Counted from the first letter of the stretch, positions 7,731-59,107 are shown. The stretch: 64,000 bases of DNA from Bacteroidota bacterium (GCA_049515655.1 JBEKTW010000001.1:419-64418); one strand, 5' to 3'. Made by a program: numbers and translations. Notes: generated by a model not told the origin, from the letters alone.

Positions 7731-8684
7731 ATGCCAAAATATAAACAGGTGGATTTGACGAACGTCAAGACAATTTCGATTCTGCGGCGAAAGAGCAAGG
7801 TACACCCCGGGGATTTCGCGAAAGTGTTTGAGCCATCCCGCCAGACATTTCCGGAGTTTGTTCGATCGTTGCCGCGCATTCTGGCGGCGGAGGATTTGCG
7901 CCGATTCGTCGAGAGCGTTGTGGGGGCCTACCGGCGTAAAAAGCCCGTCATCGCCTTGATCGGCGCTCATGTGGTCAAGGTTGGGTTGAATCCCCTGATG
8001 ATCGACATGGTCAAGCGCAGGATTATTACAAGTGTGAGCATGAACAGCGCCGCGGCGATTCACGATGTCGAGACCGCGATGTGGGGGCAGACGTCGGAAG
8101 ATGTGGAAGCGAGTATTCTCAACGGGACGTTCGGGATGTCGAAAGAGACGGGTGAATTCATCAACGGAGTTCTCGGACACGCGATGGTGAGCGACGACGC
8201 CGGGTACGGTGAAGCGTTGGGGAAGGCGCTCCAGAGGGCTCCCCTTAGAAAGATGAGTCTCCTGGCGACCTGTTATCGACTGGGCGTACCCGCCACCGTG
8301 CACGCTGCGATCGGAACGGACATTGTGCATCAACAGCCGACGATGGATGGGGCCGCAACCGGTGAAATGACGTTTCGCGATTTCAAGGTGCTTTGCAACG
8401 AAGTGAAAAACCTGCGCGGCGGCGGTGTTGTCATGAACATCGGCTCGGCGGTGGTCTTGCCCGAAGTGTTTTTGAAAGCCCTCACTGTCGTTCGAAATCT
8501 CGGTTTCAAAGCTCAGGGATTCAACACGGCCAATTTCGACATGATTCAGCATTACCGGCCGCGCATGAATATTGTGCTTCGGCCGACGAAAAACCACGGG
8601 AAAGGATATTGTTTTACCGGACATCATGAAATCATGATACCACTACTCTTCGCGATGATCAAGGACCGACTGAAGACCCGATGA
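7731..8684 (+). CDS. deoxyhypusine-synthase-like protein (DHS family)
   Basis: 317 aa. KKPVIALIGAHVVKVG...GGGVVMNIGSAVVLPEVF resembles the NAD-binding core of deoxyhypusine synthase-like proteins. Assigned from memory of the family, not a search. Confidence 0.45.
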   Translation: MPKYKQVDLTNVKTISILRRKSKVHPGDFAKVFEPSRQTFPEFVRSLPRILAAEDLRRFVESVVGAYRRKKPVIALIGAHVVKVGLNPLMIDMVKRRIITSVSMNSAAAIHDVETAMWGQTSEDVEASILNGTFGMSKETGEFINGVLGHAMVSDDAGYGEALGKALQRAPLRKMSLLATCYRLGVPATVHAAIGTDIVHQQPTMDGAATGEMTFRDFKVLCNEVKNLRGGGVVMNIGSAVVLPEVFLKALTVVRNLGFKAQGFNTANFDMIQHYRPRMNIVLRPTKNHGKGYCFTGHHEIMIPLLFAMIKDRLKTR

Positions 8685-9646
8685 ACGAACCGGGGAATCC
8701 GATAGAACCACATCCCCAAACGGCCTTCGCCGGGGTACCTCATCAAGAGCTTTCATTCCTCGAGAAGTACGGCATTTCTCCCGTCATTTTTGGACTTGCT
8801 TCCGTCGTTCTCGTTTTTTTTCTCTATGAGATCGTCGGCGGGACTCTCACGTTTCTATTCTTCGGTGTAAAGTTGACGACGGAAAATGCCACCGGTTTCA
8901 GGGTTGCCACTGCGATCGGACAATGTGCGCTTATTCTCCTTCCGACGATCGCCCTGGCCCGGTTGGCGACCTCCAAACCCGCGCAGTACCTCCGGCTCGG
9001 GTTCCCGCAGCCCCTGGTGTTTGTTCCCCCGATCATTGGAATTTTTTCCCTCCAACAGATGCTCCAGGTCTATCTGGTATTCCAGGAGAAGATTCCCCTG
9101 CCGCAGCGTCTTTTGCCGGTCATCAAGCAATTGAAGGAATTGGTCGAAGAGGCGTATAGAATTCTTGTCAGCTCAAACTCCATCCCGGAGCTGCTGTTTG
9201 TTGTCGTTATCGTGGCGTTTATTCCCGCGATCGTCGAAGAACTCATGTTTCGCGGGTTGATACAACGGAGCTTTGAAAAGGGGCTTGGTCCCTTGAGCGG
9301 CGTTGTTCTCACCGGGGTCATCTTTGGGGCCTACCATCTGAACCCATTCGCGTTTCTTCCGCTGGCCGCACTCGGTGTGTATCTCGGTTTTCTAGCTCTG
9401 CGGGCGAACAGCATCTGGGTTTCGGCCGCCGCGCATTTTTTCAACAACGCGACTGCTTCCCTCGCGGTCTATCTTCACTATGACGATGATGCTATTGTCA
9501 CCGGCAATCCGGGAGCCATGCCGGTGGGAATTCTTTTATTGACATTCTTGGCTTTCACCCTGCTATTTCTTGGATCGACATATTGGTTTGTCCGCATGAC
9601 TGCACAGAAGGAAGAAACTTCACCACCTGAGAAAGGAGTGGCATGA
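8681..9646 (+). CDS. CPBP (CAAX protease/Abi) family intramembrane metalloprotease
   Basis: Multi-TM protein with EExxxR (IVEELMFRGLIQ) and FxxxH (FGAYHL) motifs and the HFFNN motif characteristic of CPBP proteases. ATGA overlap with the upstream gene. Confidence 0.75.
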   Translation: MNEPGNPIEPHPQTAFAGVPHQELSFLEKYGISPVIFGLASVVLVFFLYEIVGGTLTFLFFGVKLTTENATGFRVATAIGQCALILLPTIALARLATSKPAQYLRLGFPQPLVFVPPIIGIFSLQQMLQVYLVFQEKIPLPQRLLPVIKQLKELVEEAYRILVSSNSIPELLFVVVIVAFIPAIVEELMFRGLIQRSFEKGLGPLSGVVLTGVIFGAYHLNPFAFLPLAALGVYLGFLALRANSIWVSAAAHFFNNATASLAVYLHYDDDAIVTGNPGAMPVGILLLTFLAFTLLFLGSTYWFVRMTAQKEETSPPEKGVA

Positions 9647-22764: not shown

Positions 22765-25059
22765 TTGCAGGATAACGAAGACAAAATACAAGCGGCGAGG
22801 CAAGCGGCGGTAGAAGACGAGATACGTCACATTGAGCAGGACCTGGAACCGCGCGCCCTTGAGCTTGCCGGTCAATGGTTGAAGCAGGAGGATCGTCTCC
22901 GCCAGCAGGAGTTGCAGGCCTCCGAAATTGAACGTCGCCGGGAAGAAGGTGTTCTCCAGGGGCGGCTTCAGGATTTTACCCGCAAGCTCGAGGAGGGACG
23001 AAAGAGAAGGGAAGACGCGCGCCGGCGTGCGGAGGAAGAACGTCTAAGGGCTGAAGAAGAACGAAAGAGATTAGAGCAGGAAAAACTGCCAAAACCTGAA
23101 CCTTTGAAAGAACAACCGCAGCCGTCGGCCAAGAAGGCAGCTCAGGAGGATGCGATCTGGGGATCGGTGGAACAGGCGGCGGAAGAAGTTCACGTCGAGG
23201 CGCCGAAAGCAACAGACGCGCCGAGACCAACAGACGCGCTCCTCAATCGGGCCCGGGAGTTTTTCTCCCAAGGTGATGTTGAGAATGCTGCCGCTGTGAT
23301 TGCCAGGGCACTGGAGCTTGACCCCTCGCACGAGGCCGCCTTGAAATTTCAAAAGGAAATTGCACCAGGGCGAGCAGCTGCAACGGAGGCTGCGCCAGTC
23401 GAAGCTGCCGCCCAGGAAGAGACTGAAGCTCCTCCCAAGGCGAAGCCCAAATTGTCGAAGAAGACCGTCACCAGATTGGTCTGGATAGCCGGGGGGGCGA
23501 TACTTCTCGGCGTGGCTGTCGTGCTGTTCTTCCGTTTCAAGAGCACACTATTTCCACGCAATGTTTCTATCGCAGTCATGCCCTTCACCGATGGTAGCGC
23601 TGCTTCTGCTGGGAGCGCCATCGGCTCGTCACTCGCGCAGGAAATTGTGAGTCGCCTGGAGCATTTGAAGTCCGTGAGCGTGATGGGGTTCTCTTCATCG
23701 CAGGCAGTGGCGCGCTCGGCATCCGACGCGCCGCATGCCGTCTTTGACCTGGGGTACCCTGTCATCCTCGAAGGGAAAATCAGGATGGGGGAGGGAAGCT
23801 ACGTCGTGGATGTGAAGATATCGGATTCCGTGGGCGCAACGCAGTGGTCACACTCGTATGAGAAAACTGCGGATCAACTGGCACAGCTTCCGAGTGAAAT
23901 TGTTGCGCAAATCGTGGACTCGTATGGTCTTGCGCTCGACGCCCAGAGCAAAACCTTCCTCTCCGCGGAGGTCACGTCGAACGGCAACGCCTATACGGCA
24001 TACCTCCAGGGACTTGCCCTTCTTCAACATCATGATGCCGACAGCGCACAGAGAGCGCTCGAGCTATTTCAGCAGGCTATCGATCAGGATAAGGAATTCA
24101 TGGGAGTGCTGGCGGAGGCATCGCTGGCGGTCATAGCGAAAGCTGAGTACAGCGGGAACGCGGATGAGAGCACCCTTGCGCACGCGGAGCAGTTGGCCCG
24201 CGCCTGCATGACGGCAGATGCATCTGTTGTCGAGGCGCATGTAGCGCTGGGGAAAATATTCGGTCTTCGAAAGCAGTACGATGCCGCCCTCAAGGAATTT
24301 GACGGGGCATTGGAGCAGTCGCCGAACAATACCGAAGCACTTGCCGCGAAGGCCCGCATCTATCTCGAAATCGGAAAATACGACGATGCCACGGACGCAT
24401 TGACTCGTGCAACGGAGCTGAACCCCCGCGACCCCGCGATCCTGGAGTTATTTGCCTTCGCCAATCAGCTCAAGAACGACCCGCGTGAGGCGAGCCGGTA
24501 CCACGAGATCGCTCTGCCGGTTTCCGAAGACTCGACGCGATACCTGACCGGGCCGATGGCCGATGCCATTCTGTTTGACCCCGATATGATTTTGAGTTAC
24601 GGTGGGCGCGTGGCGGCGGCGCTCGAACACAACATTACGTCCGACCCCACTGACTATGTGGACATGTATCGGCTTGGTCGTCTCCTCCAGGTGAGCGGGA
24701 AGGTCCCCGAGGCGTCGGAAATGTTGGGAAGACTTTCGGAGCTGCTGCGCAGAGATCTTCGTGTTCATCCGCAGAATGCCAATGCCATGGTCTGTCTTGG
24801 TCTTGCGTTGACCCGGTTGGGCAAGTTCCCTGAAGCCGCGGACCTTGCCAAGAAGGCATTGGTGGTGGGCAAGTCGGATCCCGGGATTCCGTACAAAGTG
24901 GCACAGATCTATGCTCTTCAGAAAAATCCCGAAGCTCTACAGATTCTACATGATGCAGTTGCAGGACAATTCAGGCTGGCCGAACTAACAAACGGCGATT
25001 TCTATAATTTCCGTGATAACCAGGATTTTTATTCAACTATTCAGTTGTCATCGAAATAG
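22765..25059 (+). CDS. single-pass membrane protein with charged cytoplasmic coiled-coil and C-terminal TPR domain (paralogue 1)
   Basis: 764 aa. Glu/Arg-rich coiled coil (RRREEGV...RRRAEEERLRAEEERKRLEQEK), a TPR-like unit (...ALELDPSHEAALKFQKEI), TM LVWIAGGAILLGVAVVLFF, and a C-terminal about 180 aa recognisably similar to the C-terminus of the next gene (…RYLTGPMADAIL… vs …RYLVGPVADAIL…). Confidence 0.65.
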   Translation: MQDNEDKIQAARQAAVEDEIRHIEQDLEPRALELAGQWLKQEDRLRQQELQASEIERRREEGVLQGRLQDFTRKLEEGRKRREDARRRAEEERLRAEEERKRLEQEKLPKPEPLKEQPQPSAKKAAQEDAIWGSVEQAAEEVHVEAPKATDAPRPTDALLNRAREFFSQGDVENAAAVIARALELDPSHEAALKFQKEIAPGRAAATEAAPVEAAAQEETEAPPKAKPKLSKKTVTRLVWIAGGAILLGVAVVLFFRFKSTLFPRNVSIAVMPFTDGSAASAGSAIGSSLAQEIVSRLEHLKSVSVMGFSSSQAVARSASDAPHAVFDLGYPVILEGKIRMGEGSYVVDVKISDSVGATQWSHSYEKTADQLAQLPSEIVAQIVDSYGLALDAQSKTFLSAEVTSNGNAYTAYLQGLALLQHHDADSAQRALELFQQAIDQDKEFMGVLAEASLAVIAKAEYSGNADESTLAHAEQLARACMTADASVVEAHVALGKIFGLRKQYDAALKEFDGALEQSPNNTEALAAKARIYLEIGKYDDATDALTRATELNPRDPAILELFAFANQLKNDPREASRYHEIALPVSEDSTRYLTGPMADAILFDPDMILSYGGRVAAALEHNITSDPTDYVDMYRLGRLLQVSGKVPEASEMLGRLSELLRRDLRVHPQNANAMVCLGLALTRLGKFPEAADLAKKALVVGKSDPGIPYKVAQIYALQKNPEALQILHDAVAGQFRLAELTNGDFYNFRDNQDFYSTIQLSSK

Positions 25060-25065
25060 GAACAT

Positions 25066-27558
25066 ATGGCAAACAATCCATCTCCAGAAGACCAACAAAA
25101 ACGTGCCAATGACTACCTGATCGTTGTCCCCGATTTTATCAGGTTGAAGGATTACGACCTGGCACTCCTGCAAGTCGAACGCGCCCTTTCCATCGATCCC
25201 GGCAATGCCAAGGCCCTCGAGTACAGGAAGCGCATCATCGCCATCCAGGGGCGCCCTGCGCAGCCCCCTTCTCCTCCTCCCACGGCTGAAGTTAAACCGG
25301 ATGAAAAAGAAATCCTCCAGAGTCGTAAGCAGGAAAAATTGCGGGAGCTGGAGGAAGAGCGGAGAAGATTGGAGAAGATCAGGCAGGAATTCGAGGAACT
25401 CCAGCGGCAGGAGGAGGAGCTTCATAGAAAGGAGGAGGAGGAACGAAAACGGCGCATCGAGGAAGTTAGGAAAGTAGAGGAACAACGGCGCCTAGAGGAG
25501 GAGGAACGGCGGCAACTCCTGGAACTTAAGAGAAAAGAGGAAGAACAAAAACGACAGGAGGAGATGAGTAGAAAAAAGGAGGAAGAAGAACGTCTGCGCC
25601 GTGAGGAAGAAGAGCGGAAAAGACAGGAGGAACTGCGAAAGAAAGAGGAAGAAGAGGAACGGAGAAAACAAGAAGAATTGAAAAGGAAAGAGGAGGAAGA
25701 GCGGAAAAGGCAGGAGGAACTGCGAAAGAAGCAGGAAGAAGAGGAACGGAGAAAGCAGGAGGAACTGAAAAGGAAAGAGGAGGAAGAGCGGAAAAGGCAG
25801 GAGGAACTGCGAAGGAAGCAGGAAGAAGAAGAACGGAAAAAACAGGAAGAACTGAAGAGGAAACAGGAAGAAGAGCGCAGGAGGCAGGAAGAAGTCCGGA
25901 AAAAGCAGGAGGAAGAACGGCAGCGGAAAATCCAGGAACTGCAATCTCAGCTTGAAGGCCTGAAGCAGGAAGAAGAGCGGCAAAAGAAGCTGGAGGAAGA
26001 GGCCAGGATAAAACAACAGGAACAGGAAAAACGGCGACACGAGGAGCAGTCGCGCAGACATGAAGAAGAACGTCGGAGGGCTGAACAGCAGAAAAGAAAA
26101 GCCGCCGAACACAAGGCGAAAGAGGAGGAACAGAAGCGGAAGGAAGAGGAACTCCGCCGTCGCGAGGTCGAGCACTTGATCCAGATGGATCCGCTCAGGC
26201 GCCTTGAGGAAGAGACGCGTCTCGCGAAAGAAAAGAAAGACCGCGTCCATGCTCAAATCACAGTCGCGGAGGATTTCTTTAGCTCCGGCAACTATGAACA
26301 GGCAATGGCGGAATTGACGAAGATCTTGGAAGTCGACCCCTCGTATCCGCGGGCGTTGACGCTTCGTCTCCGCATAAAGCAAGCCGAGGAGAAACACAAG
26401 GAACGAGCGACAGCGAAGAATGGCGAAAAAACAGAACCGGTTGTGGAGACCGCTGCGGTGGTAGAGCCCGTGATCATAGAGAAGAATAAGGCTATGAGAA
26501 TCGTGAAGTGGACCGGAGGTGTGGTTCTCATCATCGTCGTCGGCATCATTGTCATGACGCAAATGAGGAGACGAAGTGGCCTGGAAGTCGCGCCCCAGAG
26601 CAAGCCGGCAGCCGAAGGCACGGTGGCGAAGCCTTCACCGGAGACGACAAAGACGCCGATCGCTACACCTGCCAGCGTTGTGCCGACCGTTACGGCGGAG
26701 GAACACGTCGCCCGCGCAAATCTTTTCATCCAGCATAGGTCGTATCAATCTGCGTTGCAGGAATTCGACAGCGCGGCCGCGCTTGCTCCGAAGAGGGTCG
26801 AGACGTTTGTCTCTCAAGCCGATGTCGATCTCAAGGTGGGCAAGTATCCCGACGCGATTAAAGCCCTCTCCCACGCAGCCGAACTTGTACCTCGTGATAC
26901 AACAATTCTTCTGATGACCGCCTTTGCCCACTACCTGAACGGTGCCTACGAAGACGGTTTCAAGTATCACGAGCAGGTATTGGCCCTAACGGTGGATTCA
27001 ATCAGGTACCTCGTGGGACCCGTTGCCGACGCGATTCTCTCCAGCAAGGCGCTCCTTGCAAAATATGGCGGTCGCGTCAAAGCCGCCTTTGAAGGAAGCA
27101 TGAGCGGAGCTCCCAACGACTTTGTCAACAGGTATCGCTATGCGAGACTCCTGCTGGCACTCGGCAGTACGAAAGAAGCGAATGACGTCTTGAAAAAAAA
27201 TGTCGACTACCTTGTTGAGGAATACCGGAATCATCCGGACGACGGGCTGATCACAATGTATCTCGCCCTCTCCATGACGCGGCAAGGACATTTTTCAGAG
27301 GCGGAAGGATTCGCGAAAGATGCCAAGGACCTTGCCCGGGGAAATCCGGAAATTCTCTATAAGATCGCCCAGATGTATGCACTCCAAATGCATTCGTCCC
27401 GGGGACAGGCAACCATCGCCCAAATGAAGAAGAAAGCGCTGCAGTCCGTTCACGAAGCTGTGAACCTGCGATTCATACTGAATGAACTAACCAACGCGGA
27501 CCTGTACAGCGTTTATGGCAAGGATTTCGTCGTCGCCGCTCGGCTCCCGCTAAAGTGA
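25066..27558 (+). CDS. single-pass membrane protein with highly repetitive E/R/K coiled-coil and C-terminal TPR domain (paralogue 2)
   Basis: 830 aa. N-terminal TPR-like unit (LLQVERALSIDPGNAKALEYRKRI), about 300 aa of (EEERKRQEELRKKQEEEERRKQEELKRK)n, a TM (VVLIIVVGIIVMTQM), and a C-terminal domain paralogous to the gene at 22765. Confidence 0.65.
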   Translation: MANNPSPEDQQKRANDYLIVVPDFIRLKDYDLALLQVERALSIDPGNAKALEYRKRIIAIQGRPAQPPSPPPTAEVKPDEKEILQSRKQEKLRELEEERRRLEKIRQEFEELQRQEEELHRKEEEERKRRIEEVRKVEEQRRLEEEERRQLLELKRKEEEQKRQEEMSRKKEEEERLRREEEERKRQEELRKKEEEEERRKQEELKRKEEEERKRQEELRKKQEEEERRKQEELKRKEEEERKRQEELRRKQEEEERKKQEELKRKQEEERRRQEEVRKKQEEERQRKIQELQSQLEGLKQEEERQKKLEEEARIKQQEQEKRRHEEQSRRHEEERRRAEQQKRKAAEHKAKEEEQKRKEEELRRREVEHLIQMDPLRRLEEETRLAKEKKDRVHAQITVAEDFFSSGNYEQAMAELTKILEVDPSYPRALTLRLRIKQAEEKHKERATAKNGEKTEPVVETAAVVEPVIIEKNKAMRIVKWTGGVVLIIVVGIIVMTQMRRRSGLEVAPQSKPAAEGTVAKPSPETTKTPIATPASVVPTVTAEEHVARANLFIQHRSYQSALQEFDSAAALAPKRVETFVSQADVDLKVGKYPDAIKALSHAAELVPRDTTILLMTAFAHYLNGAYEDGFKYHEQVLALTVDSIRYLVGPVADAILSSKALLAKYGGRVKAAFEGSMSGAPNDFVNRYRYARLLLALGSTKEANDVLKKNVDYLVEEYRNHPDDGLITMYLALSMTRQGHFSEAEGFAKDAKDLARGNPEILYKIAQMYALQMHSSRGQATIAQMKKKALQSVHEAVNLRFILNELTNADLYSVYGKDFVVAARLPLK
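25540..25910 (+). repeat. near-perfect 60-bp tandem repeats (about 5-6 copies) inside the CDS
   Basis: Units such as aggaggaactgcgaaagaagcaggaagaagaggaacggagaaagcaggaggaactgaaaaggaaagaggaggaagagcggaaaagg recur with only a few substitutions. They encode 20-aa E/R/K repeats. Confidence 0.8.
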
Positions 27559-27602
27559 ACAACCGCCGGTACATTCGTTGAGAAGAACAACTTTGCATAT
27601 CC

Positions 27603-28832
27603 ATGAAAAACGAATCACCTCAACAAACTGAAAGCCCGAAGAAAAAAGCAAGTGAGCATCTCAGAAATGTCGACAGGCTGCTGAAAGCCGGCCAACACGC
27701 CGAGGCGCTCCAGGAGGTCGAACAGGCGCTTGAACTGGACCCAAACAATGCTTATGCGCTCGCCTATAAGCAACGGATTACACGAGCGATGGCACAAACG
27801 ACCCTGGCTCCTCCGCCGCCGATAAAACCTGAAGCAAAGGAACCACCCAGGGCTGAGGCGGTGCAGGGTACCCAGGAAGAAGCTGCCAGGAAATCACAGA
27901 GGAAGTTGGCGGCGATTGTGTTCACGGATATTGTAGCATACTCCGCGATCACACAACGAAGCGAGACCGGCGCTTTGCAGCTGCTCGAAGTCCATAATCG
28001 GATCCTCCGCCCCATTTTCCTCAAACATGAGGGCAATGTCGTCAAGACAATCGGGGATTCATTCCTTGTCGAATTTACAAGCGTCCTCCAGGCAGTCCGA
28101 TGTGCAATTGAAATCCAGGATTCGATCGCGCAGCATAACGCGACAGCGAGCGAGGAGCTTCAGATGAAAATCCGCATCGGCATTCACCTGGGCGATGTGG
28201 TGTACCAGGATAACGATATTTTCGGCGACGGTGTGAATATTGCTTCCCGGCTGCAGGAACGGGCGGATCCGGGTGGAATCTGTGTGTCGCAGGATGTCTA
28301 CAACCAAATACGAAATCGGGAGGGGTTCCACACCGAGTACATCGGGGAAACGGAACTCAAAAACATCCGGACTCCGATTTCATTGTACCATGTCCTGACC
28401 TCGGAGCAGGTCCAGCGCAAAGCATTCGATGCGGCAATCAACAAGGCTCATGAAGAAGGCATCGCGGCAGCGAGGGAAAAGAAACTCGAAGGATACCTTT
28501 CGCGTGCAGAAGAACTTATCGGTCAAAAATCATACGACGAGGCAATCATCGAAGCGATGAAACTGCAGGCACTGGACGCCCAGCACCCGCAAGCCAGGAG
28601 TCTGATCGAGCGTATACGCAAGGAGCGTCAGGAAGCTTGGAAAAAAGATGTCACTGAAGCGAAAAAGGTCCCGCGGCAAACTGTGCTTGAGATGTACGGG
28701 CGCGTCGTCCAACAAGTTAAGTCTGGAGAAAGCCTTACGCTGGAGGAAGACGCTCTGCTGAAGAACTTGAGAACCAACCTGCAGATATCTGAAGAAGAGG
28801 ACCGGACGATCGAGCAAGCGAATCATCCCTGA
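27603..28832 (+). CDS. class III adenylate/guanylate cyclase flanked by TPR-like units
   Basis: 409 aa. The cyclase-homology-domain core LAAIVFTDIVAYSAIT...KTIGDSFLVEF...IRIGIHLGDVVYQDNDIFGDGVNIASRL is framed by the same about 30-aa motif (…ALELDPNNAYALAYKQRI; …AMKLQALDAQHPQARSLIERI) found in the two upstream proteins. Confidence 0.8.
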   Translation: MKNESPQQTESPKKKASEHLRNVDRLLKAGQHAEALQEVEQALELDPNNAYALAYKQRITRAMAQTTLAPPPPIKPEAKEPPRAEAVQGTQEEAARKSQRKLAAIVFTDIVAYSAITQRSETGALQLLEVHNRILRPIFLKHEGNVVKTIGDSFLVEFTSVLQAVRCAIEIQDSIAQHNATASEELQMKIRIGIHLGDVVYQDNDIFGDGVNIASRLQERADPGGICVSQDVYNQIRNREGFHTEYIGETELKNIRTPISLYHVLTSEQVQRKAFDAAINKAHEEGIAAAREKKLEGYLSRAEELIGQKSYDEAIIEAMKLQALDAQHPQARSLIERIRKERQEAWKKDVTEAKKVPRQTVLEMYGRVVQQVKSGESLTLEEDALLKNLRTNLQISEEEDRTIEQANHP

Positions 28833-28874: not shown

Positions 28875-29168
28875 CTACGCCTTGGCGAGATTGCTGAAAA
28901 CTCCGCGAAAGCTCCATTTCATGGCCGCATGGCGGTAGGCCGCCATCGCTTTGACAAGACCCTGAAGGAAGAGGCACTCATCCTCCGCCTGCCTTCTCCA
29001 CACTGACTCCCAGGCCTCGTGCGCGTGCCAGAATTTTCCCCTATCGAAGAGTTCGGCGCCGTGCACCGGGTCTTTCCGATTTTCCTGCGAGAGGAGCAAT
29101 TCCTTGAGGGGAGTGCGCTGAATGTCGCCGGCTTTTTTCTTTTTCGGGTCGGGCGGTCGCGTGCTCAC
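28875..29168 (-). CDS. DUF309-domain protein
   Basis: 97 aa. FDRGKFWHAHEAWESVWRR matches the DUF309 helical motif (FN.GxFWEAHE.LE.LW). Confidence 0.55.
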   Translation of the reverse strand: MSTRPPDPKKKKAGDIQRTPLKELLLSQENRKDPVHGAELFDRGKFWHAHEAWESVWRRQAEDECLFLQGLVKAMAAYRHAAMKWSFRGVFSNLAKA

Positions 29169-30297: not shown

Positions 30298-30445
30298 AAA
30301 TGTAAGGTAAGCGAACTACGATAAAAATACAACATTCGGTAGTGGGGCAGTTCGAAGTGGCGAAATCATTCTATTTTTGATCCGGTAAAGAAGTAATGGA
30401 AAAATCTTTGAAAAGTTGTGAATCTGAACTACAAAAGGAGCCAAC

Positions 30446-30652
30446 ATGACAAAATCAAAAATTAAAAAGCAGCAGCCCCTTTTTGCGGGCATCAGCTTGG
30501 CGGAATTAATGGCGGGCGTTATCAAAAATCCCTCGATATGGTATTTAACCATTTATCGTAAGGGATACCGACCACCACCGGAGAGATTTATGAAACGATC
30601 CCAGCCACCCTCGCATTCCAAAACACGACATGACCGCACGAAGGACAAGTAA
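30446..30652 (+). CDS. small basic hypothetical protein (cargo of the insertion)
   Basis: 68 aa preceded by a good RBS (caaaaggagccaacATG). No recognisable domain. Confidence 0.4.
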   Translation: MTKSKIKKQQPLFAGISLAELMAGVIKNPSIWYLTIYRKGYRPPPERFMKRSQPPSHSKTRHDRTKDK

Positions 30653-30856
30653 GCATCACGCACACTTCGGATTTTTTGTCTTTTTCGTTGGCTAATGGAA
30701 ACCAAACCAATTCAGGTTCAGAGAGTGGATAGGAATGGCAAGTAGTACAATTAGCGTGATCTGGATTTTGACTAACCCAGCCCGGCTACTTAGACTTTTG
30801 TTCTTTGGTAAGTGGCATGGTCTTGGCTCCTTTTCTTTGTTATGTGTGTGGTTGCC

Positions 30857-31453
30857 TCAGAATGGGGGCTCTCCCTCAAGATTTACATTGCTTGGGGTGG
30901 GGGGCGAAACCTCTCGCCTGTGCCGCTTCCGTTTGCTCGGCGGGGACCACTGTTCTATCAACTCCCCCATGTGTTTGTGAAGGATGGTGTCGATAGAATG
31001 GCACTTCTTTTCAAACTGAAATAATTGTGTCGTGATTTTGCGAATTCTTTCATTGAGGCTCTTAAGAGAATCCAAGCCGACCGGGGGTGTTTTAGAAAAG
31101 GGAATAACCCCGGATCGTCGATTGAATTTCCAGGCAGTTGTTTGTTGTTTTTCATCTTGGTACCAAACCGCATGGAAACATTCATTTTTGTCTCTGTTTG
31201 CCTCAGATATGTTTTTGTGAAGTAAGTCGAATTCCTTTATCAGGGGATCGTTTGTCAAATAGTAATCAAGTAGTTTGCGATACTTGGCTAAAAGCACATC
31301 AAAGTTATCACCACCGATGAGAGCAAGGGCTCCATCGCCTATTCCTATTAGTTTAAGGAGAGAGTAAAACAATGCGAACTCCAAATGACCATGAGCGACA
31401 GCTATCTCGCCGATCAGTCTTTCATACTCATCAGATAATTTAAGCGCAGCCAT
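30857..31453 (-). CDS. hypothetical protein, possibly HEPN-like (cargo)
   Basis: 198-aa ORF. Helical N-terminal region (EIAVAHGHLEFALFYSLL) and an R-x6-H spacing (RDKNECFH) that fits the HEPN Rx4-6H pattern. This assignment is speculative. The low-complexity C-terminal tail overlaps the GC-rich segment at 30700-31020. Confidence 0.35.
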   Translation of the reverse strand: MAALKLSDEYERLIGEIAVAHGHLEFALFYSLLKLIGIGDGALALIGGDNFDVLLAKYRKLLDYYLTNDPLIKEFDLLHKNISEANRDKNECFHAVWYQDEKQQTTAWKFNRRSGVIPFSKTPPVGLDSLKSLNERIRKITTQLFQFEKKCHSIDTILHKHMGELIEQWSPPSKRKRHRREVSPPTPSNVNLEGEPPF

Positions 31454-31687
31454 GACAAATCCAATAATTATTGCCGAAATTGAGCACTTTATTACAACAC
31501 AAATGGAAGATTATTTGATATGCGGCCTGGATTCTACCGACATATCCACACTAACCGACAAAATCCTGACCCTACATAAGCACTTAAAAGAAATGGGGCG
31601 CGTGCGCGGTCGGATGAGTCAAAAATATATTGTGAATAATTCTCATTTGCCTCTTGACAAATGATAAAGTATTCATTATATTGTATC

Positions 31688-31891
31688 ATGACAATGAGAG
31701 AACTCAAACACAGTGTAGATATTGACGAATACCTCACGGTAGAGGAGTCGGCCAATCTCCTGGGCATTAAGGAGAGTGCGATCAGAAACTATCTATCGCT
31801 CGGCCTTCTCGTTAGCTATAAGCTCAAGACGCTAACACTCCTCAAAGTCGATGAAGTACGGCGCTGGAAAGAACGTCAAAAGAGACGCTGA
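31688..31891 (+). CDS. excisionase/MerR-like helix-turn-helix DNA-binding protein (cargo)
   Basis: LTVEESANLLGIKESAIRNYLSLGLL is a typical Xis-family HTH. The short protein ends with a basic tail. Confidence 0.5.
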   Translation: MTMRELKHSVDIDEYLTVEESANLLGIKESAIRNYLSLGLLVSYKLKTLTLLKVDEVRRWKERQKRR

Positions 31892-32071
31892 TATATTTTT
31901 TACTCTTGCTCTTGATAATGTATAAAGTATCAAGATATGCCAATAAATCAAACGAGCTTGCGGGTGTTGTAGCACTCGCAAGCCCTGATAATCAACGCCC
32001 GCGTGAACGAGCATTGACCGTACTCAAATGTAGTTCATTGTGGGCAAAAAGTCAATATAGGAGATACCCCA

Positions 32072-32914
32072 ATGAACTGCCTTCCGATTGAGAAAAAAGC
32101 CCTAATCTTGACCCTTCTAAGCGAGGGTAATTCAATTCGATCTATTGAACGAATTTCCGGTTGTAGTAAGCACACCATTTCAAGACTATTGCTTGAAGCG
32201 GGAGAAAAGGCTAAAGAAATACATGACCGCGAAATGATGAACCTAAGAGTGAATTTCTTGCAGGTAGATGAAATATGGACATTTGTAGCAAGAAAACAAA
32301 AACAAATAAAACAGCATGAAATCAACAACCCCGACATTGGCGATCAATACGTATTCGTAGCTCTTGACCAACAAACCAAATTAGTACCCGCTTTTCGTGT
32401 CGGCAAAAGAACCTTGAAGCTTGCATCTTCTTTCATGACAGAATTGAGAACGAGAATCGACACAATCTTTCAGTTGTCCACCGATGCTTTTGCTGGCTAT
32501 TGGAATGCTGTGGACAGGGTTTTTGGCAATGACATTCACTATGCACAAATACACAAACACTATGGAGAAGAGCCAAGAGGGGAAAAACGATACAGCCCGG
32601 CAAATATTATAAGCGTTACCAAGAGGGTACTTCTCGGTGAACCAGACCCCCAAAAGATTTCTACAAGTCACGTAGAACGGCAGAACTTGACTATGAGAAT
32701 GCAGATGCGTAGATTTACGCGGTTGACGAATGCCTTCAGCAAGAAGTTAGAGTATCTTGAGGCCGCGATTGCATTACATTTCTTCCATTACAATTTCATG
32801 CGGATTCATCAAACTTTGAGGGTAACTCCGGCAATGCAATCGGGGATTTCGAGACACCTTTGGACTTGGGAAGAGTTCTTGGGATTCGGCAAGCGACAAA
32901 GTGAGGCGGCATGA
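32072..32914 (+). CDS. IS1/IS1595-superfamily DDE transposase with fused N-terminal HTH
   Basis: 280 aa. N-terminal HTH (KKALILTLLSEGNSIRSIERISGCSKHTISRLL) followed by a catalytic core with D(EIWTF), D(QYVFVALD), STDAFAGY and HVERQNLTMRMQMRRFTRLTNAFSKKLE...HFFHYNFMRIHQTL. This parallels the IS1 InsB pattern ...SHIERFNNTLRQRCSRFVRKTLSFSK...HYNF..H. Confidence 0.8.
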   Translation: MNCLPIEKKALILTLLSEGNSIRSIERISGCSKHTISRLLLEAGEKAKEIHDREMMNLRVNFLQVDEIWTFVARKQKQIKQHEINNPDIGDQYVFVALDQQTKLVPAFRVGKRTLKLASSFMTELRTRIDTIFQLSTDAFAGYWNAVDRVFGNDIHYAQIHKHYGEEPRGEKRYSPANIISVTKRVLLGEPDPQKISTSHVERQNLTMRMQMRRFTRLTNAFSKKLEYLEAAIALHFFHYNFMRIHQTLRVTPAMQSGISRHLWTWEEFLGFGKRQSEAA

Positions 32915-33115
32915 AAAGGGTTCTCAATTTTAGCTAAAAAATTCAAAACCTTTGAAAACATGCGGAATTAGAGACCTTTACACCTAAAACCGGCCAAAAC
33001 TTTGAAATTTCAAAACTTTTTTCCCTTGATATTATCTAAGCAATGGGTTATCTTTATTCAGCCACTTAACCCTGAAAGGGGTCAATCCGATAAGCCTGTA
33101 GGCAGGCAAAAGATT

Positions 33116-33150
33116 ATACCCCACGCCAAAAACGTGGGGTATGTTTTTTT
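33116..33150 (+). terminator. rho-independent terminator
   Basis: ataCCCCACGccaaaaaCGTGGGGtat followed by gttttttt, 236 bp downstream of the transposase stop and immediately before the NYN gene ATG. Confidence 0.6.
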
Positions 33151-33846
33151 ATGAAAACAGCGATACTATTAGACGGACATTTTTCCCGCATTCATCTTAG
33201 AAGCCTCACCAAGAAGAATGCCACGAGGAAAAGACTTGACGCACTTGCCGAAGCTTCCCTTATTGATGGAGAGATGTCGTCGGGAATTTATTACTACGAT
33301 TGCTCTCCTTATTCTGAAATATTGAACTTACCAATATCCAACACCCCGCATGACTTCTCAAAAGATCCGAATTACTATATGGCAAAAAGGATGCAGGGAA
33401 AATTAAGAGCCGACCAACATTTCCATTTAAGGCGCGGTCAACTGTCTTTTGATGGATGGGCGCTTCGACCAGAATGCCTCGAAGAACTCAAAAACAAACC
33501 CCGCCGCCTTGTCGATGAGGATTTTGAACCAAGGATAAGACAGAAACAGGTTGATCTGTTGATTGGTATTGATATGGCGAAGTTAGCCATAAAGAAAGAG
33601 GTCGAAAGAATGGTTTTAGTTACCTCTGATTCCGACTTGGTGCCAGCAATCAAATACGCACAGACGCGGGGGGTCAAAGTATTTTTGATTACTTCTGATA
33701 GGGCAAAGGCAATCCTCAAACAGTCTTGCCAACGTCGCCATGTTGATTTAGACAAGTTAAAAAGACTTCTTCCAGATGATTTCCCCATTGAGGTTGTTTT
33801 ACCGGATGCCCCCCAATCCTCTCAAGCAATTCCCCCGATTCAATAA
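33151..33846 (+). CDS. NYN-domain (LabA/DUF88, PIN-like) protein (cargo)
   Basis: AILLDGHF...VDLLIGIDMAKLAIKKEVERMVLVTSDSDLVPAIKYAQTRGVKVFLITSD. The Asp-rich layout is characteristic of NYN/LabA nuclease-like domains. Confidence 0.75.
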   Translation: MKTAILLDGHFSRIHLRSLTKKNATRKRLDALAEASLIDGEMSSGIYYYDCSPYSEILNLPISNTPHDFSKDPNYYMAKRMQGKLRADQHFHLRRGQLSFDGWALRPECLEELKNKPRRLVDEDFEPRIRQKQVDLLIGIDMAKLAIKKEVERMVLVTSDSDLVPAIKYAQTRGVKVFLITSDRAKAILKQSCQRRHVDLDKLKRLLPDDFPIEVVLPDAPQSSQAIPPIQ

Positions 33847-33872
33847 GCATTTCGTGCTTATCAGTAATCGAC

Positions 33873-34301
33873 TCATTCATCCATACCCTCCCCACTCAAT
33901 GTTTTTTCTCCCCGGTTCTTCATTTGGTCGAATTTGTAGGCCGTGTCTGCAAGAAAACCAACGGTATCTACATCGTCTGGACTTCTCAAATGTTCCTCGA
34001 CTATTTTGTATGCCTGTTTTGGGTTCAAAGTAACCTCATTAAAATCGGCATAGAATTTCACCAAATATGCCAGGTAAACGGTTGGTATATTGCCCATGAG
34101 AACCCCAACCACACAAAATCCGAGTGCAACCAATAGGATAAGCCATCCCGCGCCAAAGATTTCTATTGCCAATCCGACGATTGCTAACACCATGCCGATT
34201 CTTAGTAGAACCCCTCCGATCCTATAAATAGGTCGGCATAGCCTGATGAAAGTAGTATTGTATGGCATTGGTTTTGCCTCTTTTGTTGTGGCTCTCACCA
34301 A
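33873..34301 (-). CDS. two-TM membrane protein, hypothetical (cargo)
   Basis: 142 aa with two long hydrophobic helices (GMVLAIVGLAIEIFGAGWLILLVALGFCVVGVLMG). Convergent with the NYN gene and 46 bp inside the right inverted repeat. Confidence 0.45.
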   Translation of the reverse strand: MVRATTKEAKPMPYNTTFIRLCRPIYRIGGVLLRIGMVLAIVGLAIEIFGAGWLILLVALGFCVVGVLMGNIPTVYLAYLVKFYADFNEVTLNPKQAYKIVEEHLRSPDDVDTVGFLADTAYKFDQMKNRGEKTLSGEGMDE

Positions 34302-34639
34302 TGTAAGAAAAAGGAGGGACTACCTCAATTCAAACTGCCCCACTACCCAACATTCGGACAGGCGTGAATCACCCCAGGAGGTGAGCAGCCTCCCTCTCCT
34401 ATAACCCCTTCGGGAAACGTAGTCAAAATGCGTGCTCAAACACACGAATCAGTGTTGTGAATTCTGAAATGTTCCCTCCCCCACGCCCTCTGATTTATTT
34501 GGGGGGAAATCACGCAGAAACCCAAAAGGCCCGGTTCTCGCCGGACGGCAACAGAGGCGATGCTTGATTTCTAGCCCGGAGTTTTGTAGTTTGACTCGTC
34601 CTCAGGATCAACCTGTAATTGCCAGACTGGATCAGGCAC

Positions 34640-54661: not shown

Positions 54662-55774
54662 ATGGAACAGAATACATCCGACAAAAATCGCGAACCCCGT
54701 TTCGGAAGAGTGATTCGTGAAGATCTGCGGCGGAAGGATTTTAGACGCACGGTTCGCCGGGACTACGAGGAACTTAAAGAATTCTTCATCGATGACGAGC
54801 GAAAGAAAAGGTTGAAGGAGATGCGGCCCCTGAAGCGGTGGCTCTTCACCGCCGGCTGGCTGCTCAAAGCTCTCTTGCTGAAACTCACTCCCACCCGGCG
54901 CCTGTTGCTGGTTGTGGCATTTATACTTGTGCTTTTTGCCAATGATCTTGAGTACAACGGCGAGAAGGTGAAGGTCCGGGTCGATATGGGAGTTGGAGCC
55001 GCAGCTATTGTTCTCTTTGTGCTTATGCTCGAGTTGAAAGACAAACTGCTCGCGCGGGACGAGCTCGCGGCCGGCAGGGCCGTGCAAATGGCGCTCCTTC
55101 CGGAAAGAACTCCGAAGGTGCAGGGTTGGTCCGTGTGGCTCTTTACGCGTACCGCGAATGAAGTGGGGGGCGATCTGGTCGACTTCCAAAAAGTCGCTGA
55201 GGACCGTTTCAGGGTGACGCTTGCCGATGTCGCAGGCAAAGGGTTGAGCGCGGCGTTGCTTACGGCGAAACTTCAGGCAACCGTCAGGGCGCTCGCTCCG
55301 GATATCGACTCCTTGAGCGAGGTCGGGACAAAGCTCAACAGGATTTTCTACCGCGACAGCCTTCGTAATGTCTTCGCGTCGGTGGTGTATCTCGAGGTGC
55401 GATCCGACTCGGGAAATCTGCGATTCGTCAACGCCGGGCACCTGCCGCCATTGCTCCTGAGAGGAACGGAAATCGAGGATATGCCCAAAGGGGATGCGGC
55501 CATCGGAATCCTTCCCGAGGCAGCCTGCACTGAAAATCGTATCGAGCTCCGGAAAGGCGACATGCTGCTTGTCTATTCGGATGGATTGTCGGATGCGAAG
55601 AATGTGGCGGGGGAGTTCTTCGGAACTCAGCGGCTGCTGAAACTTCTCCCCACCTTGAAGGACCTCGGCGCGCCCGAAGCCGGCGAGAGAATTGTTGCAG
55701 AAGTCAATCGTTTTGTAGGCGATGCCCGGGTGTACGACGACCTTTCGCTCATCGTTCTGAAGCGTCTGGCGTAA
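54662..55774 (+). CDS. PP2C-family (SpoIIE/RsbU-like) serine phosphatase with N-terminal membrane anchor
   Basis: TM segment (RRLLLVVAFILVLF...), then PP2C motifs ...VGGDLVDF...TLADVAGKGLSAALL...NAGHLPPLL...VYSDGLSDA.... Confidence 0.8.
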   Translation: MEQNTSDKNREPRFGRVIREDLRRKDFRRTVRRDYEELKEFFIDDERKKRLKEMRPLKRWLFTAGWLLKALLLKLTPTRRLLLVVAFILVLFANDLEYNGEKVKVRVDMGVGAAAIVLFVLMLELKDKLLARDELAAGRAVQMALLPERTPKVQGWSVWLFTRTANEVGGDLVDFQKVAEDRFRVTLADVAGKGLSAALLTAKLQATVRALAPDIDSLSEVGTKLNRIFYRDSLRNVFASVVYLEVRSDSGNLRFVNAGHLPPLLLRGTEIEDMPKGDAAIGILPEAACTENRIELRKGDMLLVYSDGLSDAKNVAGEFFGTQRLLKLLPTLKDLGAPEAGERIVAEVNRFVGDARVYDDLSLIVLKRLA

Positions 55775-56650: not shown

Positions 56651-57492
56651 CATGTGAAAAGTGCGAGGAATTATTTGTTGACGCTCGCTACGGCGAATTG
56701 GGGGCCGCGGATACTGCGGCATTCAAAGAACACCTCTCCTCGTGCACGGCATGCGCGTCAGGCTACGCACGCATGCAACAAGCTTTGGAGATCATGGACG
56801 GGCGTCTCCGGAGTGAGCCCGGAGAAGCGTTTTGGGCGAACTACTGGGAGAACCTCCGTTCCAGGATGGAATCGGACGAGAAAACACCACCCCTGCGGAC
56901 GCATTCCCCGAAGATTGTTCGTTTCAGACCGCCATTCATGCCTGCATGGGCGTACGGTGTCGCTGCGGTCCTGCTAGTCGCGCTCGGGATCTATCTGGGT
57001 AGAACTGTCCTCGTAAGACAAACTCAGGGTGCCGGCCGGCCGGCGAATGCTTCAATTGTCGGCACAGGCGCGGACTCTGCCACTGCATTGCGGCAAGCAA
57101 CGGAGAGACAATCCAACGAATACCTTGAACGGTCAAAGGTCTTGCTCATCGGACTCGTGAATACCCCGGTCGGGGTTTCGTCGACTTCCAATCTTGCGCG
57201 CCAACAACACATCTCGCGCGAGCTCATCCGGCAAGCCAGCTACCTCCAAACCGCCCTCAAGGAACCCGAGCAACGACATCTCCGGCAGCTCATCGGCGAC
57301 CTTGAAGTCGTTCTTATGGAGCTCGCAAACTATAGCGTCGAGAATGGCGTTCCACTGGTTGAGCTCGTCAAACAGGGCGTTGACAAGAAATCCATCTTAC
57401 TCAAAATTAACGTCGAGCAGATTCGTGCGCTTGGTTCTCGACCGGAACCTCCCGCGAAGACTCTCAAGGACAACGCGAAATCAAAAATCTGA
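56647..57492 (+). CDS. membrane-anchored anti-sigma factor (zf-HC2 type)
   Basis: N-terminal CEKCEE...H...CTAC (zf-HC2), a single TM (AYGVAAVLLVALGIYLG), and a periplasmic domain. ATGA overlap with the sigma gene. Confidence 0.7.
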   Translation: MTCEKCEELFVDARYGELGAADTAAFKEHLSSCTACASGYARMQQALEIMDGRLRSEPGEAFWANYWENLRSRMESDEKTPPLRTHSPKIVRFRPPFMPAWAYGVAAVLLVALGIYLGRTVLVRQTQGAGRPANASIVGTGADSATALRQATERQSNEYLERSKVLLIGLVNTPVGVSSTSNLARQQHISRELIRQASYLQTALKEPEQRHLRQLIGDLEVVLMELANYSVENGVPLVELVKQGVDKKSILLKINVEQIRALGSRPEPPAKTLKDNAKSKI

Positions 57493-57508
57493 AGAAGGAG
57501 TGCATGTG

Positions 57509-59104
57509 ATGACATCAAAAAGAGGTCTTTTGAAACGAACGACAAGCCTGTCAGGAGCAATTCTGCTCATGGCACTGCTGGCCATACTCATGCCGGTGGC
57601 GGTCCGCTGCCAGGATGCACCAACCAAAGCCTACGACCAGGCGTATGGGTGTATCCTCGACGAAAAATGGTTGGATGCCCAGAAAGCTCTTGGTGAGTTC
57701 ATCAAGCAGTACCCAAAGAGCAAAATGGTCGATGCGGCAGAATACTGGCAATGCTATACACGCGACAAGCTCGGCGAGGACCAGGAAAGCGTCTTTCAAT
57801 GTTACGACAACTTCATCAAATCGCATCCGAAAAGCAAATGGAAAGATGATGCCAAGTCGAATCTCGTGAGAATTGCCTACGATCTCTCAAAGAAGGGCAA
57901 GCCGGAGTACAAGGAAAAGATTCAGGGGATGGGGGAAGAGGAAGATGAGGATGTCAAGCTCGCGGCATTGAATGCGTTGAGCAACATGGGGAGTGACGAG
58001 GCGTACGCCGCGATAATCGACCTGTTCGACAGGATGCCGGGTGAGGGACTACGCAGCAAGATCGTATACGTTCTCGGCAACATAGAATCTCCTGAGGTTG
58101 GCAAGAAGCTCCAGGAGATTGCGACGAGAGATCAGAGCATAAGAGTCCGTAAGGACGCTGTCTACGCGCTCGGCAACCGTGGCGATTCGGCTGCGTTCAT
58201 GGCAATGGAACAGATCGTTCGCTCGAAAAACGACAGGGAAGTGCGGAAAGCCGCGCTGTACGCTCTCGGCAACATGGATGAGAAGAAGGTAATCCCATTT
58301 CTGGGCGAAGTCGGTCGAACCGAGCAGGACCAAGAGCTCGCGAAAGCCGCGACGTATTCTCTCGGCAATACTGATGGTGAGCAGGCTTCCGGTGAACTGA
58401 AGCGCATCTTCAAGGAGGCGAAGGAGACGGAAGTCCGAAAGGCGGCGATGTACGCCCTCGGCAACCGGGGCGACGCCGCTGCAGTTGCTGCGCTGAAGGA
58501 AGCAGCTCTTGCCGACCAGGACTCCGAAATCCGAAAAGCGGCCGCCTACGCCCTCGGCAACATCGGTGACCAGGACGTTGTCGAGGCATTGAAGGAGATT
58601 GTCAGCACAAGTCGCGATTCCGAAACGAAAAAGGCGGCACTCTTCAGTCTCGGAAACACCGGAAAGGAAGCAGCGAAGGTATTTCTCATCGCCACTGCGA
58701 CAACGGACACAGATGACGAAATCGCAAAGACGGCGATCTTTGCCCTCGGAAATCTTTCGGGTGGAGACGATCCGGATCTCATGCTGAATATCGCCCGGAA
58801 ATCCCCTTCGCTCGCAGTTCGAAAACAGGCAGTCTACCAGATCGGCAACGGCAATGGTCCCGCTTCCGTCAAAGCGCTGGCCAGGATTGCACGAGAGGAG
58901 CAAGACACCGAGCTCAGGATTACGGCAATCTACGCCTTAGGGAACTCGGGGAGCGACGATGCAGTCCCAACGCTCGCAGAGGTCGCGAAAACGGGCGGTG
59001 AAAAGAAACTACGCAGCGCGGCCGTGAGCGCACTGGGACAGATCGGCACCGACAAAGCCCGTGCTGCTTTGATGGAAATCCTGGGATATAAATCAAAGGA
59101 GTAA
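57509..59104 (+). CDS. periplasmic HEAT-repeat (PBS-lyase HEAT-like) protein with Cys-containing N-terminal domain
   Basis: Start at ATG 57509, which has an aggag RBS. Signal peptide, four Cys in the first 90 mature residues, then 12 or more repeats of the xVRKxAxYALGNxG type. Confidence 0.7.
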   Translation: MTSKRGLLKRTTSLSGAILLMALLAILMPVAVRCQDAPTKAYDQAYGCILDEKWLDAQKALGEFIKQYPKSKMVDAAEYWQCYTRDKLGEDQESVFQCYDNFIKSHPKSKWKDDAKSNLVRIAYDLSKKGKPEYKEKIQGMGEEEDEDVKLAALNALSNMGSDEAYAAIIDLFDRMPGEGLRSKIVYVLGNIESPEVGKKLQEIATRDQSIRVRKDAVYALGNRGDSAAFMAMEQIVRSKNDREVRKAALYALGNMDEKKVIPFLGEVGRTEQDQELAKAATYSLGNTDGEQASGELKRIFKEAKETEVRKAAMYALGNRGDAAAVAALKEAALADQDSEIRKAAAYALGNIGDQDVVEALKEIVSTSRDSETKKAALFSLGNTGKEAAKVFLIATATTDTDDEIAKTAIFALGNLSGGDDPDLMLNIARKSPSLAVRKQAVYQIGNGNGPASVKALARIAREEQDTELRITAIYALGNSGSDDAVPTLAEVAKTGGEKKLRSAAVSALGQIGTDKARAALMEILGYKSKE

Positions 59105-59107
59105 TCC

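Follow-up and report, generated by a model that had tools for sequence, protein, structure and literature searches.

Whether two membrane proteins and a soluble nucleotidyl cyclase that are encoded side by side act together as one signalling module is the question raised by a three-gene cluster at positions 22765 to 28832 of a 64,000-nucleotide stretch of DNA from a Bacteroidota bacterium (GCA_049515655.1, JBEKTW010000001.1:419-64418). This whole stretch is hereafter called the window, and its nearest genome-level relatives are Ignavibacteriota metagenome-assembled genomes (MAGs). The three open reading frames (ORFs), all on the + strand, encode P1 (22765-25059; 764 aa, with a TTG start), a single-pass membrane sensor protein; P2 (25066-27558; 830 aa), a paralogue of P1; and P3 (27603-28832; 409 aa), a soluble protein predicted to be a class III adenylate cyclase. 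P1 and P2 are separated by 6 nt and P2 and P3 by 44 nt. The source of the window is a 294-kb metagenome contig from the Joint Genome Institute (JGI), whose publicly available gene calls have the same boundaries as these ORFs and agree with the initial annotation of the window, which had placed three same-strand genes here and proposed that membrane receptors carrying tetratricopeptide repeats (TPRs) partner with a soluble cyclase through a common motif. Our analysis led us to a related reading, to which we give a probability of about 0.5, namely that the cluster is an operon for a split receptor-type adenylate cyclase module that is peculiar to one Ignavibacteriota clade. That a P1-like gene neighbours the cyclase at nine of nine loci, that P1 is modelled with a sensor-type fold and that fused homologues provide a precedent all favour a module of membrane TPR receptors and a soluble cyclase; what found no support is a coupling of P1 through a shared motif.

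In the mechanism that we envisage, P1 would sense an envelope or periplasmic signal that alters its oligomeric or conformational state, and this state would be passed by way of the cytoplasmic helices of P1 to the helical scaffold of P3. P3 would be the output, a soluble cyclase with its catalytic domain inserted in that scaffold; because P3 would have to dimerise for activity, a change in the state of the scaffold would alter the output of cyclic AMP (cAMP). P2 might plausibly be an accessory or competing docking partner that presents a P3-type hairpin at the end of a spacer some 40 nm long, and in most relatives a response regulator that shares this type of hairpin at its N-terminus, and also the P3 tail, would be a third member. 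We infer both the P1-P3 partnership and this mechanism from the comparisons that follow. Such a natural split version would put sensor and enzyme in two proteins, making the transmission step amenable to study by binding and reconstitution. The individual parts are of ordinary kinds, they come from an uncultured organism, and no new biochemical activity is indicated.

P3 is predicted to be an adenylate cyclase

The assignment of P3 to the class III cyclases was confirmed by a match to the Guanylate_cyc family (PF00211; 77.5 bits, cutoff 21.9) at aa 103-263, within a cyclase homology domain that spans aa 100-264 (27900-28394, + strand) and is supported by catalytic residues, Foldseek and phmmer. 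By sequence, the closest solved catalytic domains are 3MR7, Ma1120 and Rv1900c, with E-values ranging from 2.7e-32 (phmmer against 3MR7) to 1.6e-12. When the cyclase domain of the AlphaFold2 (AF2) model was compared with the structures of Ma1120, 3MR7 and Rv1900c using Foldseek, target-normalised template-modelling (TM) scores of 0.87-0.94 and root-mean-square deviations (rmsd) of 1.4-2.8 Å were obtained. Six residues, D109, D152, K148, D205, N212 and R216, are invariant in 25 full-length orthologues having 41-88% identity; from the class III motifs, we take D109 and D152 to be the metal residues, K148 and D205 those that contact adenine, and N212 and R216 the transition-state pair. On these grounds P3 is predicted to be a catalytically competent adenylate cyclase. 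The initial annotation had left the product as cAMP or cGMP; since K148 and D205 form the adenine-specifying pair, P3 is predicted to make cAMP, and cGMP specificity was rejected on account of the same Lys/Asp pair. A K/D adenine-specifying pair is also present in Ma1120, a soluble mycobacterial-type cyclase. LipJ (Rv1900c) and 3MR7 (from Silicibacter pomeroyi) differ from P3 in what flanks the enzyme, an alpha/beta hydrolase in contrast to the TPR hairpins and ENT-like tail of P3.

Neither a transmembrane span nor a sensor domain was found in P3 by Pfam and hydrophobicity scans. Its catalytic domain is preceded by an N-terminal TPR hairpin at aa 18-62 (27654-27788, + strand), assigned from motif scores to the class A described below and modelled by AF2 as one TPR plus a capping helix, with helices at aa 12-28, 32-45 and 50-67, and by a disordered, P-rich linker at aa 69-95 (predicted local distance difference test, pLDDT, <50). 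Downstream of the catalytic domain come a 40-residue helix and a second TPR-like motif, of class C, at aa 297-341 (28491-28625, + strand), which is conserved in all P3 orthologues and in a cyclase-less homologue at the related locus L011. The protein ends in a helical tail at aa 352-409 (28656-28829, + strand), defined by alignment, with the pattern Y..ll...w.dG.Ls..E...L..lR..l.Is.eEh; this pattern is also found twice in response-regulator proteins of related loci. The tail is weakly ENT-like: against the Pfam family ENT (PF03735) it scored 17.7 bits, below the cutoff of 28.5, and 13 of 18 tails matched, all of them below threshold, while weak matches were obtained to EMSY (1UZ3, E 0.0014) and Tic110 (E 0.009). 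As a lead only, the tail could be a bacterial ENT-like module and, if real, a candidate dimerisation element.

P1 is modelled as a membrane protein with a CadC-like sensor module

The description of P1 and P2 as single-pass proteins proved correct, as a hydrophobic span was found once in each (P1, about aa 236-262; P2, about aa 478-500) and not at all in P3. In P1 the transmembrane helix (23470-23550, + strand) was detected in a Kyte-Doolittle scan and corresponds to helix 2-27 of the AF2 model. Because the flank on its N-terminal side is richer in K and R, we predict that P1 has its N-terminus in the cytoplasm. The cytoplasmic part is purely helical and comprises a conserved N-terminal segment, a short E/R/K-rich helix at aa 72-117 (22978-23115, + strand; 46 aa, 65% E/K/R, 11% hydrophobic) and one TPR hairpin, a membrane-proximal, TPR-like three-helix motif at aa 158-202 (23236-23370, + strand) that motif profiles assign to class B and relate to P2 aa 396-440. 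An 18-nt in-frame tandem repeat (2.2 copies; Tandem Repeats Finder) is located in the cytoplasmic linker at 23200-23239.

Beyond the membrane lies an alpha/beta domain (aa 267-385; 23563-23919, + strand) resembling TolB and the N-subdomain of CadC, with the sequence SIAVMPF... and an AF2-predicted beta-alpha-beta fold (pLDDT mostly ~80-95). When aligned, this domain and its homologues gave the consensus KSIAVLPF..., and the homologues are named 'TolB-like protein' by JGI. It is followed by a TPR superhelix (aa 393-764; 23941-25056, + strand) that is closed at the C-terminus by a 'TPR end' cap, as seen with Pfam TPR_2, NCBIfam, AF2/Foldseek and BLASTP; its residues ~463-764 are common to P2. 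These periplasmic TPRs lie above the Pfam threshold (TPR_2, 75 bits, cutoff 27), and the NCBIfam model TPR_END_plus matched at aa 710-756. The AF2 model of aa 236-764 (pLDDT 88.7, predicted TM score, pTM, 0.84) consists of the membrane helix, the beta-alpha-beta domain and about 20 helices. Besides generic TPR superhelices, its best compact Foldseek match was the periplasmic sensor domain of E. coli CadC (3LYA, 3LY7, 3LY8 and 3LY9; target-normalised TM score 0.69-0.72, rmsd 4.3-4.7 Å, ~315 columns), and a weak sequence match connects P1 aa 349-479 to CadC 280-411. The extracytoplasmic part of P1 thus models confidently as a sensor-type module of CadC-like fold.

CadC, a member of the ToxR-like family (3LYA, 3LY7), resembles P1 as predicted here in being a single-pass protein with its N-terminus inside the cell and in having, in the periplasm, an alpha/beta subdomain and after it a bundle of TPR-like helices. 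The two differ in that CadC possesses a cytoplasmic winged helix-turn-helix (wHTH) domain that P1 lacks, and in the approximately 200 extra residues of TPR superhelix in P1. The resemblance raises the alternative that P1 is a ToxR/CadC-like one-component regulator that contacts DNA or some other target directly through its charged cytoplasmic helix, the cyclase being unrelated. The CadC-like periplasmic fold, the weak CadC sequence match and the existence of wHTH-fused homologues would agree with this idea, as would the ability of K/E/R-rich single helices to bind DNA, for example in CAF-1 (PMC10335832). However, Pfam and NCBIfam scans of P1 found neither the wHTH family PF00486, also not found in P2, nor any other DNA-binding domain; the NCBIfam CadC equivalog scored 33.9 bits on P1 with a cutoff of 400, and the cytoplasmic part of P1 is conserved as helical segments only. 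Since P1 has no DNA-binding domain, we consider this alternative highly improbable. In fact, the profile scans recognised no enzymatic, cyclase or DNA-binding output domain at all in P1.

The relatives of the P1 sensor module (23-29% identity, E-values down to 2e-34), named 'TolB-like protein/TPR' by JGI, are found elsewhere fused to wHTH, Ser/Thr kinase, class III cyclase, TIR or KaiC domains. Judged by these homologies, P1 belongs to a family of extracytoplasmic sensor modules that combine promiscuously with other domains.

Sensor and cyclase domains are joined in one protein in other bacteria

About three quarters of the best non-orthologous relatives of P3 are cyclase-TPR fusions of 485-716 aa with 50-61% identity over the catalytic domain, and several P3-related fusions are named 'class 3 adenylate cyclase/TolB-like protein/TadD'. 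In one such protein, P0057, a cyclase, a transmembrane helix, a TolB-like domain, TPRs and an end cap follow one another in a single polypeptide. As the two domain types that are separate in P1 and P3 are often fused elsewhere, a Rosetta-stone argument suggests that P1 and P3 are partners as sensor and cyclase. Fused receptor cyclases, of which P0057 and P0035 are examples, are widespread in metagenomic Verrucomicrobia, Deltaproteobacteria, Terriglobia and other groups. To our knowledge, receptors with this order of cyclase, transmembrane, TolB-like (COG5616) and TPR segments have been annotated without biochemical characterisation, and our searches found no biochemical study of single-pass TolB-like/TPR receptor cyclases, though these are very common in environmental bacteria.

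The fused receptors contain a cyclase of the same subfamily as P3 and, like P1, a TolB-like alpha/beta domain, TPRs and a 'TPR end' cap; the predicted topology, with the cyclase inside and the TPRs outside, is also the same. They differ from the system described here in being one polypeptide and not a separate P1 sensor and P3 cyclase, in having the enzyme where P1 has a cytoplasmic region made of an ER/K (Glu-Arg/Lys-rich) helix and a hairpin, and in lacking the N- and C-terminal helical modules of P3. Sensor domains of the CHASE2 type are those of CyaD1 and CyaD2. The nearest studied concept is that of the receptor-like cyclases of S. meliloti (PMC5498481, which does not describe the CHASE2-type domains), class III cyclases of the membrane receptor type, which answer an extracytoplasmic signal by making cAMP; the likeness is one of concept, with no homology of sensors being claimed, and the S. 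meliloti proteins, in contrast to P1 and P3, are single polypeptides. Literature searches returned no described split TPR-sensor/cyclase system, no hairpin/ER-K family and no relevant work on COG5616.

A P1-like gene accompanies the cyclase in related genomes

Nine independent loci with P3 orthologues were compared: the window, L003, L004, L006, L008, L009, L012, L013 (which ends at a contig edge) and L014. At every one of them a P1-like gene lies immediately upstream of the cyclase gene on the same strand, at distances that go from a 23-nt overlap to a 44-nt gap, and this adjacency extends to cyclases having 41% identity. The pair has been retained despite a changed upstream flank in L008 and changed downstream flanks in L006 and L014. 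Orthologues of P1 were found in L003, L004, L006, L008, L009, L011, L012, L013 and L014. Conserved co-occurrence, which the initial annotation had proposed as a check for the three gene types, therefore holds for the pair in nine of nine loci but not for the three-gene form, since P2 was confined, among the loci read, to the window and L003, a relative with 87% identity. A scan of genome contigs with the C-terminal sub-alignment of P1 and P2, in the form of two peptide patterns, recovered just two species, both Ignavibacteriota MAGs, and therefore underestimates prevalence.

In five of the related loci a gene encoding a response regulator of about 340 aa lies upstream of the P1-like gene (L004 6555-7577, L006 2702-3715, L009 6532-7557, L012 4892-5614 and L014 3800-4816). 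These proteins are composed of a class A hairpin, a charged helix, two tail repeats and a receiver domain. No orthologue was found in the window, L003, L008 or L011. The combination of response regulator, P1 and cyclase is, from this distribution, the ancestral-looking form of the locus.

The L011 locus, from an Ignavibacteriae MAG, offers a variant. In the product of the gene that follows its P1-like gene (7782-9122), hairpin, class C motif and tail are all present but an ER/K helix replaces the cyclase, and Pfam Guanylate_cyc gave no match. Because the scaffold has been retained without the cyclase, L011 suggests that what stays tied to P1 is the scaffold and not the enzyme.

The TPR-like motif falls into classes

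According to the initial annotation, a single helical motif is located at the N-terminus of all three proteins and is repeated after the cyclase domain or the coiled coil, an arrangement taken to suggest that receptors and enzyme partner through it. From the window together with four related loci we collected 20 ungapped instances of 45 aa, and hidden Markov models (HMMs) were built from the non-window sequences only. A helical, TPR-like motif of about 45 aa is indeed found at P1 158-202, P2 16-60, P2 396-440, P3 18-62 and P3 297-341, and no other carrier was detected among the remaining ORFs of the 64-kb window. These instances do not form one family. Class A, with the consensus ..L..AD.LLK.G....AL.EVE.AL.LDP.N.YALAY..RI, comprises the N-termini of P3, of P2 and of the ~340-aa response regulators of related loci: the class A HMM derived from cyclases gave 42-60 bits with the regulator N-termini and 32-34 bits with P2. 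With the P1 copy it gave 7-18 bits, no different from the 2-18 bits of the ordinary periplasmic TPRs of P1 and P2, and with the post-cyclase class C copy 0-5 bits. A motif at the N-terminus of P1 was rejected: neither the window protein nor any of its orthologues has a copy there, the position being taken up by another conserved helical segment.

Hence, the N-termini of P2 and P3 are specifically related, as claimed, but P1 has no copy at its N-terminus and its internal copy is generic; likewise, the motif does recur at P2 396-440 and P3 297-341, but as the separate classes B and C. The concern that the motif might be a generic TPR applies to P1 and not to P2, P3 and the regulators, among which conservation is specific. 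A partnership of P1 with the cyclase by means of the same motif is thus unsupported, the P1 copy being TPR-like in a generic way. The cytoplasmic hairpins by themselves are below the TPR profile threshold (P3, 23.1 bits; cutoff 27). An exhaustive search with the class A profile retrieved 20,290 proteins, and because most of them are ordinary multi-TPR proteins we regard the hairpin as a TPR variant. A homology search with the class A hairpin alignment returned seven short fragments and did not recover the known cyclases.

These data bear directly on the possibility that P1 and P2 on one side and P3 on the other are co-transcribed yet functionally independent, P1 and P2 having a role of their own as an envelope TPR scaffold or sensor and P3 being regulated independently; the features in common would then be generic TPR hairpins and charged helices that are frequent in the lineage. 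Several of our results speak for such independence and weigh against a split receptor cyclase. The P1 hairpin shows no specific kinship to that of P3, the likeness being at the level of TPRs in general, which is also the level at which the class A profile gathers its thousands of proteins. The wider neighbourhood is largely syntenic as well, with AAA_11 helicase, DUF423 and QueF genes upstream and DUF309, radical SAM and AnmK genes downstream, so part of the conserved adjacency may reflect general synteny within one clade. Furthermore, L011 indicates that the unit can exist without a cyclase domain next to the P1-like gene. Against a split receptor cyclase, in addition, wHTH- and kinase-fused sensors score above the cyclase-fused ones when compared with the P1 module, the AF2 arrangement of the P3 domains relative to one another is uncertain (pTM 0.54), and no effector binding cyclic nucleoside monophosphates was found among 20 other window ORFs, covering part of the window, that were scanned with Pfam, or among Pfam-annotated gene calls within ~10 kb of the cluster. 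On the other hand, independence does not explain well that the P1-like gene and the cyclase gene are closely spaced or overlapping at every locus, that the pair outlasts rearrangement of either flank, that the same two domain types are joined in the Rosetta-stone fusions, or that the neighbour of the P1-like gene in L011 still has the P3 scaffold. We regard functional independence as possible though rather unlikely.

P2 combines a truncated P1 with a long predicted ER/K helix

The homology of P1 and P2 extends over their C-terminal regions (38% identity over 320 aa, E 5e-58, BLASTP), and the common domain first noted from the strings RYL(T/V)GP..ADAIL, YGGRV and YK(V/I)AQ(I/M)YALQ was thereby substantiated. 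At its other end, P2 is related to the N-terminus of P3 (35% identity over 94 aa, E 2e-9). The three proteins had been taken for paralogues; P1 and P2 are homologous, but P3 has only this N-terminal module in common with P2. The class A hairpin of P2, one TPR plus a capping helix, occupies aa 16-60 (25111-25245, + strand; scores as given above, from an HMM of non-window cyclases). Nearer to the membrane there is a class B motif at aa 396-440 (26251-26385, + strand; 25-27 bits with the HMM of P1 orthologue motifs), followed by the transmembrane helix located by hydrophobicity scan at about aa 478-500 (26497-26565, + strand) and by a periplasmic TPR domain at about aa 540-830 (26683-27555, + strand) that is homologous to P1 463-764 according to BLASTP and the orthologue alignment. 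The periplasmic TPRs of P2 are also above the Pfam threshold (TPR_2, 52 bits, cutoff 27). Neither the alpha/beta domain nor the first TPRs of P1 are present in P2, which has a P/T/A-rich linker in their place. By these comparisons P2 is a recent, truncated paralogue of P1 with an N-terminal hairpin of the P3 type.

The segment of P2 between the two hairpins, aa 103-371 (25372-26178, + strand), consists of 269 residues, 72% of them E, K or R and 11% hydrophobic, with 0.52 opposite-charge i/i+4 pairs per residue, and would measure about 40 nm if fully helical. In a simple composition test, the best hydrophobic occupancy of heptad a/d positions was 0.17 for this segment and 0.38 for P1 aa 72-117. 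Its charge-rich composition, i/i+4 salt pairs and low a/d hydrophobicity make it probable that this is an ER/K single alpha-helix. The earlier description of the segment as a coiled coil fits less well and was rejected, there being no hydrophobic heptad seam. Composition, i/i+4 pattern and lack of a heptad seam are the same as in the ER/K single alpha-helices of myosins and INCENP (PMC5378345, PMC4183817, PMC4571873); the P2 helix differs in lying between TPR hairpins of a bacterial membrane protein and in being a prediction from sequence. An in-frame 87-nt (29-aa) tandem repeat is contained within the helix (25603-25916, + strand; 3.6 copies, 88% match; Tandem Repeats Finder), so the helix is evolving in length.

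These properties of P2 invite another explanation, in which proteins built of hairpins and ER/K helices assemble through their hairpins into a larger cytoplasmic scaffold and set the distances between enzyme and membrane, so that the periplasmic TPRs would anchor and not sense. Bacteroidota and Ignavibacteriota MAGs encode proteins with 3 to 11 hairpin-plus-ER/K units (P0252, P0293, P0264, P0361 and P0277), which are labelled hypothetical or unannotated, 'trichohyalin' or 'CheY-like', and some of which end in a P3-type tail or a receiver domain. A 269-aa ER/K helix in P2 whose length changes through the 87-nt repeat, a class A hairpin common to P2, P3 and the response regulators, and the known function of single alpha-helices as spacers and springs (PMC5378345, PMC4183817) would all be in line with such a scaffold. 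Nevertheless, binding between single TPR hairpins is a conjecture; P1, which is the conserved partner, has just a short ER/K stretch and a divergent hairpin, and its CadC-like fold points to sensing. We consider this explanation doubtful. With similar reserve, we raise as a speculative proposal that the TPR hairpin, the ER/K helices and the ENT-like tail belong to an undescribed docking-and-spacer system of Ignavibacteriota and related Bacteroidota that would hold hairpin enzymes (adenylate cyclase and receiver-domain proteins) and the membrane sensors P1 and P2 in one complex. If this were true, the length of the ER/K helix, evolving by repeat expansion, would set the distance from enzyme to membrane, and the catalytic domain would be an exchangeable insert, L011 being an example. 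The locus itself shows that an Ignavibacteriota clade makes signalling proteins from an unusual set of parts, comprising TPR hairpins that occur singly, ER/K helices of great length and a tail resembling ENT, with the cyclase domain swapped out in one case, that of L011.

Neighbouring genes and other features of the window

Promoter and terminator scans yielded counts not above those of shuffled sequence, with a sigma-70 consensus that is probably wrong for the host phylum. Downstream of the cyclase gene, on the - strand, there is a DUF309 gene (28875-29168) of 97 aa only; its counterparts in L004, L011, L012 and L013 encode 280-293 aa, and none was called in L003. The gene in the window is probably a decaying remnant. 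Farther downstream, between the radical SAM gene and AnmK, a block of about 4 kb (30300-34600) has a GC content of 0.43-0.45 vs ~0.53 and contains an HTH_17 gene, an IS1-type DDE transposase gene and an NYN-domain gene. As the radical SAM gene and AnmK are adjacent in the 87%-identical L003, this block looks like a recent mobile-element insertion. A SpoIIE-type phosphatase gene (54662-55774) and two adjacent genes for HEAT-repeat (PBS-lyase-type) proteins of 636 and 382 aa (57194-60256) appear to be unrelated to the cluster.

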